This document shows, piece after piece, positions 1-11,365 of a stretch of 27,459 bases of DNA. Position 1 is the first letter of the stretch. Each line of letters begins with the position of its first letter. The stretch lies in the NCBI GenBank assembly GCA_964483645.1, contig CAZACG010000002.1, forward strand, positions 1 to 27,459. The letters run 5' to 3'. The translations under genes and the position numbers were made by a program. The notes beneath the pieces are model-generated. The model was not told where the DNA came from. It was given only the letters and a program-made list of their open reading frames with translations, and did not search any database. This stretch comes from an uncultured Oscillospiraceae bacterium. Its GTDB lineage: Bacteria > Bacillota > Clostridia > Christensenellales > Aristaeellaceae.

Positions 1-1230
1 AGGCTGATCTGCGAGAAGGAACGCATTCGCCGCTTGCCGACGCAGTACCCATGGGACAGAAAAACTGCGCTGCTCAAGCTTCAGGAGCTTGCGCCGAAGG
101 CGACGAGCGAGGATTTTGAACGTTTGGAGCTGGCGGGCTGGGTGGATTTCATCTATATCGGGGGCGAAAAGCGTTACTTTGTGCGTTTTCATCGTAGTCT
201 GCTCAAAGCCGGCCTGCTGAGGGATGTGACGGAGGAAACGCCTAATCCCAAGAACGATTGGCTCGATCCGATGATCGCGCAGATTCGGGAGAAGGGCAGT
301 CTTACTCGGCGCATCACGCTGGATGTGAGCCTGAGCGTTGATCGGGAAGCATTTGTGCCGGGCGAATATTTAGTGCATCTGCCGTTTCCCGCAGTGTCGG
401 CGCAGCAGAGCGATATTGAGCTGATTTCAGGTGATCCGGATGGTGTGGGGGCGGAGAAAGCGCCTGCGCGTACGCTCTGGTGGAGACGCAGGCTGGATGC
501 ATGGCAACCCTTCAGCGTCCGTTACAGCTACACCAGCCGCATTCGCTATGCCGATCCGTTGCACAAGGAGGCTCCCGAGGAGGCGCTGTATCCCGGCGAA
601 GAGCCGCCCTGTGTGGAGGATTTGTCCGAGCGCGGCGCATATCTGCGCTTCACGCCGTATCTGCGAGCGCTGGCGGCCGAGCTGACGAAGGACGAGAACG
701 GCGATGTGGGTAAGGCTTGGAAAATATACGAATTCGTCACCACGAAAGTCAAATACGCCTTCGTGCGCGATTATTTTCAGTTTGACGACCATGGCGAATA
801 CTGTGCGGTCAACCTCAAGGGCGATTGCGGCTTGCAGGCGTTGTTTTTTATCATCCTCTGCCGCATCAGCGGGATTCCCGCACGCTGGCAAAGCGGCATG
901 GCGGTGGAGACGGATTATACAGGCGCGCACGACTGGGCGCAGTTCTATTTGAAGGGATGGGGCTGGTTGTTTGCGGATTGCAGCTATGGCGGCAGCGCGT
1001 ATCGCGCGGGCAATTCAATCCGGCATCAATTCTACTTTGGCAATCTTGACCCCATGCGCATGGTCGCAAACAGACAGTATCAGGCTGAGCTTGAACCGAA
1101 GAAGCAGGCGCTGCGTGCGGATCCCTTTGATAATCAGTCCGGCGAGATGGAGTGCGTGGGCGCGCCGCTGCCCTTTACCTTCCGACAGCTTGATTGCGAC
1201 GCGACGCTTGTATCCTACCGGGACCTGTAA
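1..1230 (+). CDS. Transglutaminase-like superfamily (papain-like Cys-His-Asp) protein, 5'-truncated by the window edge
   Basis: Frame is open from base 1 (RLICEKERIRRLPTQYPW...), so the TTG at 34 is probably internal. Motifs GDCGLQALFFIILCRISGIPARW (Cys), GAHDWAQFY (His) and WLFADCS (Asp) match the transglutaminase-like core. Confidence 0.85.
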   Translation, partial: RLICEKERIRRLPTQYPWDRKTALLKLQELAPKATSEDFERLELAGWVDFIYIGGEKRYFVRFHRSLLKAGLLRDVTEETPNPKNDWLDPMIAQIREKGSLTRRITLDVSLSVDREAFVPGEYLVHLPFPAVSAQQSDIELISGDPDGVGAEKAPARTLWWRRRLDAWQPFSVRYSYTSRIRYADPLHKEAPEEALYPGEEPPCVEDLSERGAYLRFTPYLRALAAELTKDENGDVGKAWKIYEFVTTKVKYAFVRDYFQFDDHGEYCAVNLKGDCGLQALFFIILCRISGIPARWQSGMAVETDYTGAHDWAQFYLKGWGWLFADCSYGGSAYRAGNSIRHQFYFGNLDPMRMVANRQYQAELEPKKQALRADPFDNQSGEMECVGAPLPFTFRQLDCDATLVSYRDL

Positions 1231-1339
1231 GGAGGGTGAAGGAAATTCAAGCGAAGCATGCATATGACTTTACAAAATGAAAGAAAAAGCGGAAAAAATG
1301 AAAATCCTTTGGAAAAAATCAAATTCGCCGGGTTGCGAA

Positions 1340-1368
1340 TTGCATTTTTCTCCAAAATGTGGTAAGGT
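1340..1368 (+). promoter_or_regulatory. Putative sigma-A promoter of the opp operon
   Basis: TTGCAT (1340-1345), 17-bp spacer ending TGG, TAAGGT (1363-1368); AAGGAGG RBS precedes ATG 1403. Confidence 0.5.
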
Positions 1369-1402
1369 AATCGCATGCTGAAAAAGACAAGGAGGAAATG
1401 AC

Positions 1403-9176: not shown

Positions 9177-9243
9177 GACGCGATTCAAGGCGCGAAGACG
9201 AAAGAAATATCCGGAACAAGACACATTCCCGGGAGGAATCGAC

Positions 9244-10416
9244 ATGAACGATTGTGAACTGAAAACCCTTGTTGAGGCTCAAAAGGACTGGATGATTCAA
9301 AAGCGCCGCGCGCTTCACCGCATTCCGGAGCGCGGCTTTGCAGAGTTTAAGACGCAGAAGCTCGTCATGGAGACGCTTGAGGAGATCGGCGTGCCGTATA
9401 CCACCGAGCGCACATGGGTCGTTGGTTTGATCGAGGGCGGATTGCCGGGAGACACGGTTGCGCTGCGCGCGGATATGGATGCGCTGCCGATTGAAGAGCC
9501 TGAGGGCTGCGTGTTCCGCTCGGAGCATGCGGGCATGATGCACGCATGCGGACATGATGCGCATACCGCTATTCTGCTTGGTGCAGCCAAAGTGCTTGCA
9601 GGCATGCGTGCGCAGATGCATGGCAGGGTGAAGCTGCTGTTCCAGCCGGCGGAGGAGACGGATGGCGGTGCAGAACCGATGGTTGCCGCAGGCGTTATGG
9701 AAAACCCGCATGTGGATAGGGTGTATGGGCTGCATGTCATGCCGCATCTGCCCGTGGGAACGGTAGAAACACGACCGGGTACGCTGAATGCTTCCACGGA
9801 CAGCGTTGTGCTGACCATTCATGGCAAGGCTGGACACGGCGCTTACCCGGAGAGCAGCACGGATGCGATTGTCTGCGCTGCCCAGATCATTTCTGCGCTG
9901 CAAACGCTGGTATCGCGCAATGTGTCGCCGCTGCAAAGCGCGGTGCTGACCTTTGGCGTGATTTACGGCGGAACGGCGCAGAATATCATCTGCGACAGCG
10001 TGACGCTGAATGGAACGCTCAGAACGGCGAACGCAGAGATCCGTGAGATGATGAAACGGCGCATTCGCGAGGTTGCTGAGGGCGTCGCCGCGGCGATGGG
10101 CTGCCATGCAGATGTGGAGATTGTCTCCGGCTATGCCGCGTTGGTGAACAATGACGCCGAGGCCGCAAGGGTGATGCACGTGGCCGACAGATTGCTGGGT
10201 TCGGAGCATGTCGTGCAGAAAGCCGCGCCCAGCATGGGCGGTGAGGATTTTTCATTTTTCGGCGATTGCGCGCCGGGAGCGTTCTTCCATATCGGCTGCT
10301 CGCCGGAAGAAAGTCGAAACGCTGCGCCGCTGCATAGCCGGGATTTTACGCTGGATGAAGACTGCCTGACCATCGGCGCGATGATGCATGTCGCGCTGGT
10401 GACGGACGGACAATAA
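9244..10416 (+). CDS. M20D family amidohydrolase/peptidase
   Basis: ATG 9244 follows GGAGG. Motifs ALRADMDALPI, MHACGHDAHT, LFQPAEE, GHGAYP, GGEDFS, PLHS. Confidence 0.92.
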   Translation: MNDCELKTLVEAQKDWMIQKRRALHRIPERGFAEFKTQKLVMETLEEIGVPYTTERTWVVGLIEGGLPGDTVALRADMDALPIEEPEGCVFRSEHAGMMHACGHDAHTAILLGAAKVLAGMRAQMHGRVKLLFQPAEETDGGAEPMVAAGVMENPHVDRVYGLHVMPHLPVGTVETRPGTLNASTDSVVLTIHGKAGHGAYPESSTDAIVCAAQIISALQTLVSRNVSPLQSAVLTFGVIYGGTAQNIICDSVTLNGTLRTANAEIREMMKRRIREVAEGVAAAMGCHADVEIVSGYAALVNNDAEAARVMHVADRLLGSEHVVQKAAPSMGGEDFSFFGDCAPGAFFHIGCSPEESRNAAPLHSRDFTLDEDCLTIGAMMHVALVTDGQ

Positions 10417-10426
10417 GGAGGAGCCT

Positions 10427-11365
10427 ATGCTCAAGGGAAAGAAACTGCAAACGGGGGATACGATCGGCTTGATCGGTCCATCGGGCGCCGTGCGTACGGA
10501 GGGTGCGGTTGAGCGCGCCGTCGAATATGCCAAAGGGCTGGGCTTTCAGGTGAAGCTTGGCGAGAGCGCTCATGCGCGCTATGGCTATCTTTCCGGCACG
10601 GACGAGGTGCGCGCGCGCGACGTTAACGCGATGTTCGCAGACCCGCAGGTGGACGCGATCGTTTGTACACGAGGCGGCTACGGCACCATGCGCATTCTGG
10701 ATATGCTGGATTATGATGTAATTCGAGCCAATCCGAAGATCTTTGTCGGATTCAGCGATATCACCGCGATGCATATTGCCTTTTTGGAAAAGGCAGGACT
10801 GGCGACCTTCCATGGGCCGATGGCGACGGGCTGGAACGATGAATTCCCGGATGGATTTACGCAGAAAGCCTTTTATGACGCGGTGATGAAGGCGGAGCCG
10901 CTGGGTGCGCTGAATAACGCGCAGGGCTATCATGAGCGGAAGACCGTCAACGCGGGAAGCGCGGAGGGGTTGCTTGTGGGAGGCAATTTGTCGCTGATCG
11001 CCGGAACCATCGGAACGCCGTATGAGCTGGATACCAAGGGACGCATCCTCTTTATCGAGGAAATCGGCGAGCGCACTTACTGTGTGGATCGCATGCTGAC
11101 TCAGCTGCGTCTGGCTGGGAAATTCAATGATTGCGCGGGAATTGTGTTTGGCGATTTCAATGACTGCCCTGTGGAGTATCCGGAATTCGGGCTGACGCTG
11201 GAGGAGGTCATTCGCGATATCGCCGCGCCGTGCGCGAAGCCGATCTTTACAGGCCTTCAGGCAGGACATGTCTCGCCCAAGCTGACGCTGCCCTTAGGCG
11301 TACGCTGCGGGATGGATGCCGATGCCTGCACCTTAACCGTGCTGGAGGCGGCTGTTGAGCCATAA
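10427..11365 (+). CDS. S66 family LD-carboxypeptidase (LdcA/YkfA/MccF-like)
   Basis: RGGYG, nucleophile motif GFSDIT, GGNLSL, FIEEIGE (Glu), AGHVS (His); no signal peptide, so cytoplasmic; 10 nt after the M20 gene. Confidence 0.92.
   Translation: MLKGKKLQTGDTIGLIGPSGAVRTEGAVERAVEYAKGLGFQVKLGESAHARYGYLSGTDEVRARDVNAMFADPQVDAIVCTRGGYGTMRILDMLDYDVIRANPKIFVGFSDITAMHIAFLEKAGLATFHGPMATGWNDEFPDGFTQKAFYDAVMKAEPLGALNNAQGYHERKTVNAGSAEGLLVGGNLSLIAGTIGTPYELDTKGRILFIEEIGERTYCVDRMLTQLRLAGKFNDCAGIVFGDFNDCPVEYPEFGLTLEEVIRDIAAPCAKPIFTGLQAGHVSPKLTLPLGVRCGMDADACTLTVLEAAVEP

Follow-up and report, generated by a model that had tools for sequence, protein, structure and literature searches.

A locus of nine genes at the start of the DNA analysed here, a stretch of 27,459 nucleotides (nt; hereafter the window), probably serves gut Clostridia in salvaging cell-wall (murein stem) peptides that contain D-amino acids, a reading to which we assign a probability of roughly 65%. 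The window (G000:C2:1-27459) opens contig 2 of a metagenome-assembled genome, 61% complete, from an uncultured Oscillospiraceae bacterium. Scans with Pfam and NCBIfam recovered, all on the plus strand, the genes for a transglutaminase-like (TGase-like) protein, the five components of an oligopeptide importer (OppABCDF), an alanine racemase (Alr), an M20D amidohydrolase and an S66 LD-carboxypeptidase (Table 1). All nine co-oriented genes named in an earlier reading made from the letters of this DNA alone (the sequence-only reading) are therefore present, with the families that it had given them, and none of the locus enzymes has a signal peptide. From its gene content, we regard the locus as a variant of the dpp-ykf type of salvage, the murein-peptide paradigm of Bacillus subtilis (PMC2954226).

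The core of the locus, oppABCDF-alr-M20D-(M55)-S66, where M55 stands for a peptidase gene of variable presence, is kept in at least 11 close relatives (L004-L007, L092-L095, L102, L106, L112 and L113/L114), which are uncultured gut or rumen Clostridia, part of them labelled Aristaeellaceae. For instance, L004-L007 retain the order OppABCDF-Alr-M20D-S66, with 63–85% identity in S66. Seven more loci, located through their TGase gene, contain TGase-OppABCDF-Alr-M20D; one of these is rearranged, with the TGase gene 2 kb past S66 and on the opposite strand, still adjacent. A fuller form appears on Pfam-annotated metagenome contigs, comprising S58, class-A beta-lactamase-like, TGase, OppABCDF, Alr, M20D, M55 and S66 genes. 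This arrangement is more than chance, being found in identical order in many independent genomes, and the linkage across related genomes that had been suggested as a check holds for opp, alr, M20D and S66.

We also sampled the wider family with one genome per genus, covering 60 genera, and found an S66 homologue in 22 of the 60 genomes. Among 20 S66 loci fetched from other genera, eight contain Alr-M20D-M55-S66 in that order, six hold partial forms of this block, some of them cut by contig ends, and the remaining six have S66 alone. Six blocks of other genera adjoin a peptide ATP-binding cassette transporter whose lineage differs from that of the window (identity about 30% for OppB and about 55% for OppF). 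Peptide importers of two lineages thus precede the block, having either arisen or been retained there, and this is our strongest argument for a connection between import and the four enzymes. At 74 loci of the nearest S66 relatives from outside the family (Acidobacteria, cyanobacteria and Sphingobium) the neighbourhood lacked Alr, M20D, M55 and TGase alike, so the block is a feature of Clostridia.

Judged by their motifs and the lack of signal peptides, the locus enzymes seem intact and located in the cytoplasm. The S66 protein has both S66 domains, a Ser110/Glu/His281 triad and no signal peptide; its 312 amino acids are an LdcA-like length and its sole NCBIfam match is muramoyltetrapeptide carboxypeptidase. 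Residues 12-294 align gap-free to residues 27-308 of the LdcA chain 1ZRS, and in comparison with MccF (3SR3) about 20–22 loop residues that MccF has between the two domains are without a counterpart. This MccF-specific loop carries the Trp that stacks on adenine. The M20D protein scores 365 bits against TIGR01891 (cut-off 154), with catalytic and dimerisation domains and intact metal motifs (HACGHD and PAEE), and its nearest solved relatives are ILL2, YxeP and 4EWT. Between M20D and S66, eight of 11 related loci have an M55 gene whose product matches the DppA D-aminopeptidase model and is homologous to B. subtilis DppA; one of the eight copies is split. The gene is gone from this gap in L004, L005 and the window, where only 10 nt separate M20D from S66. 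The split copy is that of L007 (9032-9984; G004:C53:11466-12403), with M55 in two frames (residues 1-99 and 82-266), which may represent decay or a frameshift and would agree with M55 loss in the lineage of the window.

The racemase contains both Alr domains (PF01168 and PF00842), with motifs KADAYG and GYIDGY and thus the PLP lysine and the catalytic Tyr motif, and scores 254 bits against TIGR00492 (cut-off 168) and 285 bits against the vanT-G-Cterm model, below the NCBIfam cut-off of 460. Besides the locus copy, each of four related genomes (G001-G004) encodes elsewhere a higher-scoring, canonical alanine racemase; the locus racemase is a second, diverged paralogue and not the housekeeping copy. 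All 16 locus-linked racemases compared, from many genera (the window, L203-L220 and L223-L226), contain the motif NRNE, versus ISYE in the four housekeeping paralogues. The Asn of this motif in the window (codon near 9087-9089) occupies the position of Tyr354 in the Geobacillus stearothermophilus enzyme and of Asn696 in VanT. Replacement of Tyr354 by Asn in the former increased serine racemisation 62-fold, that of Asn by Tyr in VanTG decreased it 30-fold, and Asn at this position is the key determinant for accepting serine (PMC4542195). Because of this VanT-type Asn, the locus racemase is predicted to act probably on D-Ser besides D-Ala. Unlike VanT serine/alanine racemases, however, the window enzyme is a soluble protein of 381 amino acids without a membrane domain, and its Asn is preceded by Arg; this Arg is found in the locus copies, the equivalent residue being Thr in VanT and His or Asn in Alr. 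A Pfam scan of the eight other locus genes and 19 more open reading frames of the window revealed no D-Ala:D-Ser ligase or van gene. A recent preprint describes hundreds of Asn-type racemases outside a van context, and the Alr-M20D-M55-S66 block may be one context of these.

The B. subtilis dppABCDE-ykfABCD genes encode the M55 D-aminopeptidase DppA, the Dpp importer, the S66 enzyme YkfA, the L-Ala-D/L-Glu epimerase YkfB and YkfC, a gamma-D-Glu-diamino acid endopeptidase of the SH3b-NlpC/P60 type. Our locus resembles them in having an Opp/Dpp-family importer beside a cytoplasmic S66 enzyme and, in most relatives of the window, a homologue of DppA; in contrast, it has a dedicated Asn-type racemase, an M20D enzyme, an AliB/AmiA-like OppA and, within a single sub-clade, a TGase-like protein. 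Both systems would follow one logic, in which stem peptides are imported and then dismantled. We found no match over the cut-off to PF13378, for a YkfB-type epimerase (enolase superfamily), in G000, G001, G003 and G004, and a YkfC-like query gave no match in five genomes of the clade, in which the NlpC/P60 matches were weak (≤32 bits). The absence of both proteins from G000 proves little because this genome is incomplete, but the relatives agree. The sequence-only reading had proposed an analogue of the B. subtilis system built from different parts, which fits the lack of YkfB and YkfC in these searches of the clade; nevertheless, M55, Opp/Dpp and S66 are shared, so that the likeness is partly homology and not analogy alone. 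Likewise, the locus shares its importer family (Opp) and the LdcA type of its S66 enzyme with the Escherichia coli murein tripeptide pathway (MppA/Opp, LdcA, MpaA, YcjG, PepD and Mpl), but in the window it is without MpaA (M14) or YcjG, and it looks catabolic, with a racemase and an aminopeptidase, rather than devoted to re-ligation.

The TGase-like gene of the window is short by about 48 codons, and its full-length orthologues, of about 457 amino acids, have no signal peptide and are thus predicted to be cytoplasmic. The sequence-only reading had described a Cys-His-Asp protein, and the triad is indeed there (Cys 826-828, His 928-930 and Asp 976-978, in motifs GDCG, HDW and FAD): His and Asp are invariant among 67 members of the family and Cys is kept in at least 90% of them, several Arg, Asp and Glu residues being invariant as well. 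The family comprises 2470 cluster representatives at E ≤0.001 and 243 at E ≤1e-30, mostly of about 455 amino acids. Sequence searches against solved structures retrieved nothing significant, and only a fold search gave matches. The AlphaFold2 model (predicted local distance difference test, pLDDT, 95) contains a helical domain, a beta-sandwich and a transglutaminase core; its nearest solved fold in Foldseek is 3ISR, an uncharacterised protein from Cytophaga hutchinsonii, followed by TgpA and, weakly, by the pseudomurein endoisopeptidase PeiP, a transglutaminase fold able to cut cell-wall isopeptide bonds. The protein shares the Transglut_core fold and the Cys-His-Asp triad with these cysteine hydrolases (for TgpA, with its periplasmic domain), although identity is 13–18% and the window family is cytoplasmic, with N-terminal helical and beta-sandwich domains of its own.

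The surroundings of distant TGase genes (79 loci, 38–62% identity) clearly show a theme of D-amino acids and murein peptides. A dipeptide epimerase is encoded on the same strand in ten of these loci (abutting the TGase gene in eight), a LysA-type (diaminopimelate) decarboxylase in eight (abutting in five), an M19 dipeptidase in seven (abutting in six), a DUF819 protein in seven and a cytoplasmic YkfC-like SH3-NlpC/P60 protein in five, always abutting. Other neighbours are S58, an Asp/Glu racemase, an enzyme of the D-Cys-desulfhydrase family, S66, M55, a D-aminoacylase-type amidohydrolase and Opp, and a peptide-related neighbour is present in 20 of the 43 loci whose flanks reach 5 kb or more on each side. 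In Enterococcus, the epimerase beside TGase is closely homologous to the dipeptide epimerase of E. faecalis, whose structure is solved (3JVA) and which reportedly prefers L-Xaa-Tyr dipeptides; if so, L-Ala-D-Glu need not be the substrate of every TGase-epimerase pair. Culturable candidate carriers of a TGase locus include Enterococcus termitis, Vagococcus acidifermentans, Clostridium neonatale and Oscillibacter ruminantium. Second TGase copies or orthologues in L098, L099, L105 and L109 have unrelated housekeeping neighbours. A literature search found no paper in which transglutaminase-like proteins are connected to stem peptides or to dipeptide epimerases.

Several arrangements around these TGase genes deserve mention. 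The succession DUF3870-DUF819 (a membrane protein)-TGase-M19 dipeptidase recurs in Oscillospiraceae-type genomes (L141, L148, L164, L166 and L186), and DUF819 may substitute there as importer of the same substrates. In two distant loci, a sigma-54 activator with PAS and AAA+ domains is encoded beside TGase and S66 (L172, 2013-3977; L183, 11347-13272), an indication that modules of this kind are under sigma-54 control in some Firmicutes. The S58 (DmpA-like) peptidase gene lies directly upstream of the TGase gene in relatives; in the genome of the window it is on another contig (L197, G000:C6, 6046-8468), overlapping the end of a PGA_cap (CapA-like) gene.

The sequence-only reading had also cast the TGase-like protein as a stand-in for YkfC, and this was not borne out as stated. 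Linkage of TGase to the Alr-M20D-S66 locus is confined to one sub-clade, and the Christensenella-type loci encode a cytoplasmic YkfC-like protein immediately next to TGase. Moreover, among the 60 family genomes ten have both TGase and S66, 12 S66 alone, 18 TGase alone and 20 neither, the ten joint occurrences comparing with 10.3 expected for independent genes; where both occur, they are on different contigs. TGase and S66 are thus independent within the family and, on all these grounds, the arrangement of the window looks like a merger of TGase, together with its Opp lineage, and Alr-M20D-(M55)-S66. The Opp lineage of the window (OppD/F 78–80% identical) is indeed the one tied to S58-Opp-YkfC-like-TGase-LysA in the Christensenella-type loci.

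The nearest solved relative of OppA is pneumococcal AliB (266 bits), ahead of DppE (95 bits) and MppA (72 bits), and nothing in the OppA sequence indicates that it is specialised for murein peptides. Its signal peptide (1403-1480) ends in VMA-EE and has no lipobox, as in the orthologues. The OppC insert (residues ~116-248) is confined to the sub-clade of the window, the nearest OppC without it being 65% identical; its model is all-beta (pLDDT 76) and gave no Foldseek match at E ≤0.001, with only weak rows for SH3 and endolysin CBD structures and thus a weak likeness to SH3. This insert might be involved in holding OppA at the cell.

Transcription signals divide the locus, and we propose from their layout at least three expression units: TGase, oppABCDF with a promoter of its own, and alr-M20D-S66, which would be expressed by read-through, from its own promoter or by both. 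A TTGCAT...TATGAT layout upstream of oppA is kept in seven relatives. Repeated TTGCAT/ATGCAA motifs lie upstream of the oppA promoter and overlap it in relatives (L113, 11375-11575; also L093, L094, L095 and L102) and may be operator sites of some regulator; the window retains just the promoter-proximal TTGCAT copy. Another candidate operator, the palindrome AATTCGC-N6-GCGAATT (1322-1341), was rejected because it is in no related locus. The hairpin following oppF is also kept in seven relatives, with a good T-run only in the window and two of the relatives. The alr gene starts about 25 nt past the hairpin in most relatives, where read-through is likely given this distance and the lack of a T-run; in the window, the distance is 97 nt, which could accommodate a separate alr promoter. 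The terminator that the sequence-only reading placed at 7902-7935 thus exists as a hairpin, shifted to 7900-7933, and the accompanying caveat of at least two transcripts was half right: the hairpin is conserved, but most relatives lack the T-run and are likely to read through.

In the scheme that we favour, the AliB/AmiA-like Opp system would import stem peptides, derived from the turnover of the cell itself or, in the gut, from other bacteria. The cytoplasmic S66 enzyme would then take the C-terminal D-Ala off tetrapeptides and, in most relatives, the M55 DppA-type D-aminopeptidase (not in the locus of the window) would free N-terminal D-Ala from fragments of the D-Ala-D-Ala type. The racemase paralogue would turn the released D-Ala, and probably also D-Ser, into the L form. 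M20D, which the sequence-only reading had tentatively made the dipeptidase, a guess, might cut an N-acyl-L-amino-acid bond of the remaining peptide, with gamma-D-Glu-(L-centre)diaminopimelic acid (DAP) and a dipeptide bond as candidates, and the TGase-like cysteine hydrolase would probably cut or deamidate another amide bond of such peptides. As the target of the latter, the gamma-D-Glu-diamino acid bond is our leading, if doubtful, candidate; another peptide or isopeptide bond is unlikely, and unlikelier still, to the same degree, are a deamidation of iso-Gln or amidated DAP and a protein unrelated to murein peptides. Somewhat short of even odds, we tentatively see two undescribed elements of cell-wall peptide catabolism here, taken jointly: the racemase-M20D-M55-S66 block, with a racemase for D-Ser and D-Ala, and the 457-amino-acid TGase-like family, a putative new stem-peptide amidohydrolase or deamidase with thousands of members in Firmicutes, which would swap partners among the epimerase, YkfC-like, LysA-type and M19 proteins or the block.

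Several points weigh against a murein-peptide salvage module. All functions, substrates and pathway steps derive from gene neighbourhood and homology. OppA has its closest kin among generalist binders of oligopeptides (AliB/AmiA) rather than in DppE or MppA, and in the window a strong terminator-like hairpin stands between opp and alr. The S66 protein scores under the LdcA equivalog cut-off and its best solved match is B. anthracis MccF (141.9 bits, versus 131 for LdcA). The sequence of M20D gives no specific substrate assignment, no enzyme for L-Ala-D-Glu was identified, and M55, missing from the locus of the window, was not found elsewhere in the 61% complete G000 either. As for the TGase-like protein, about half of its long-flank loci have no peptide-related neighbour and it shows no phyletic correlation with S66. 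Lastly, G053, a 95% complete genome from the same genus as the window, has no S66 match at E ≤1e-30, and its TGase homologue is only 40% identical; the module is hence dispensable and variably present even within the genus.

Part of these data could also be read as general peptide nutrition, in which Opp would import ordinary L-oligopeptides for amino-acid supply and alr-M20D-S66 would be a separate cytoplasmic housekeeping unit, trimming the precursors of the cell's own wall and supplying D-Ala, with an adjacency due to loose co-regulation. The AliB/AmiA-like OppA, the oppA promoter and the hairpin before alr speak for this, as do four Alr-M20D-M55-S66 blocks (L203, L210, L213 and L215) that have no Opp gene in the stretch fetched. 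However, the two transporter lineages found before the block in different genera point to selection for the pairing, the gap of about 25 nt between hairpin and alr ribosome-binding site in the relatives leaves no room for a promoter, and the racemase is additional to the housekeeping copy and differs from it at a residue that governs specificity; we consider this explanation quite improbable.

The likeness of S66 to B. anthracis MccF raises the possibility that the locus detoxifies or exploits other peptides that contain D-amino acids, such as microcin C-like peptide-nucleotides or non-ribosomal peptide antibiotics, with S66 as an MccF-like amidase for what Opp imports. Such compounds usually enter through importers of the Opp type. 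We set the MccF assignment aside because the protein lacks the length of the MccF loop and its NCBIfam match is LdcA alone; with its LdcA length and gap-free alignment to LdcA, and with M55, racemase and M20D partners that suit the release of D-Ala and not the cleavage of nucleotide-peptides, this role is very improbable. Least probable of all, and hardly to be expected, is a function in sporulation or germination, by which the genes would serve the spore cortex or coat and the racemase would be a spore-type alanine racemase. The window does contain the sporulation-linked genes for SpoVT, Gpr, a DacB-like penicillin-binding protein and CotH, from which we deduce that the host, a member of the family-level group with Aristaeellaceae, is a spore former; these lie within 10 kb of the locus, and spoVT is near it in several relatives. 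Yet the flanks vary, with CotH absent here in relatives and spoVT on either side depending on the genome, and the opp-alr-M20D-M55-S66 unit recurs without those neighbours.

Table 1. Features of the salvage locus and its transcription signals, in window coordinates.
Feature	Position	Strand	Evidence or remarks
Transglutaminase-like (TGase-like) Cys-His-Asp protein	1..1230	+	PF01841, E 1.9e-17; 5' end cut by contig end
Promoter-like site for oppA	1340..1368	+	TTGCAT, 17 nt, TAAGGT; TG in front; read from sequence
OppA substrate-binding protein, AliB/AmiA-like	1403..3268	+	PF00496
OppB permease	3531..4481	+	Profile matches
OppC permease with clade-specific extracytoplasmic insert of ~133 amino acids	4483..5907 (insert ~4828-5226)	+	Profile match
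OppD ATPase	5924..6967	+	Profile matches
OppF ATPase	6960..7895	+	Profile matches
Terminator-like hairpin 3' of oppF	7900..7933	+	14-bp stem, 8 GC pairs, then TTTTATT
Diverged second alanine-racemase paralogue (alr)	8031..9176	+	TIGR00492; Lys43 at 8157-8159; NRNE motif
M20D amidohydrolase / carboxypeptidase-type enzyme	9244..10416	+	PF01546, PF07687, TIGR01891
S66 LD-carboxypeptidase, LdcA-like	10427..11365	+	PF02016 and PF17676; Ser110 10754-10756, Glu211/212 11057-11062, His281 11267-11269

Longer open reading frames would start at 7959 for the racemase and at 9157 for M20D. Nevertheless, alr likely starts at ATG 8031, behind GAGAGGAG, which fits orthologues of 380 amino acids, and M20D likely at ATG 9244, behind GGAGG; with these starts, the two genes do not overlap. 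Downstream of the locus, a gene for a CotH-kinase protein (11392-13824; 810 amino acids, including domains of the lamin-tail and chitobiase C-terminal-like types) begins 26 nt past the stop of S66 and may be co-transcribed with it. This gene is absent here in L004, where spoVT comes after S66.

Murein-peptide recycling has been worked out mainly in E. coli and B. subtilis, and the abundant anaerobic Firmicutes of the gut are largely unexplored in this respect; cell-wall peptide fragments are, besides, immune signals for the host. The locus offers enzymes that can be tested, both in the racemase-M20D-M55-S66 block and in the large TGase-like family that accompanies stem-peptide enzymes. For resistome surveys it is of note that a vancomycin-resistance role is unlikely for a soluble Asn-type racemase encoded in a catabolic block, even though homology tools score it as vanT-like; if our reading is true, the block would accommodate some of the 'orphan' Asn-type racemases called vanT in metagenome surveys.

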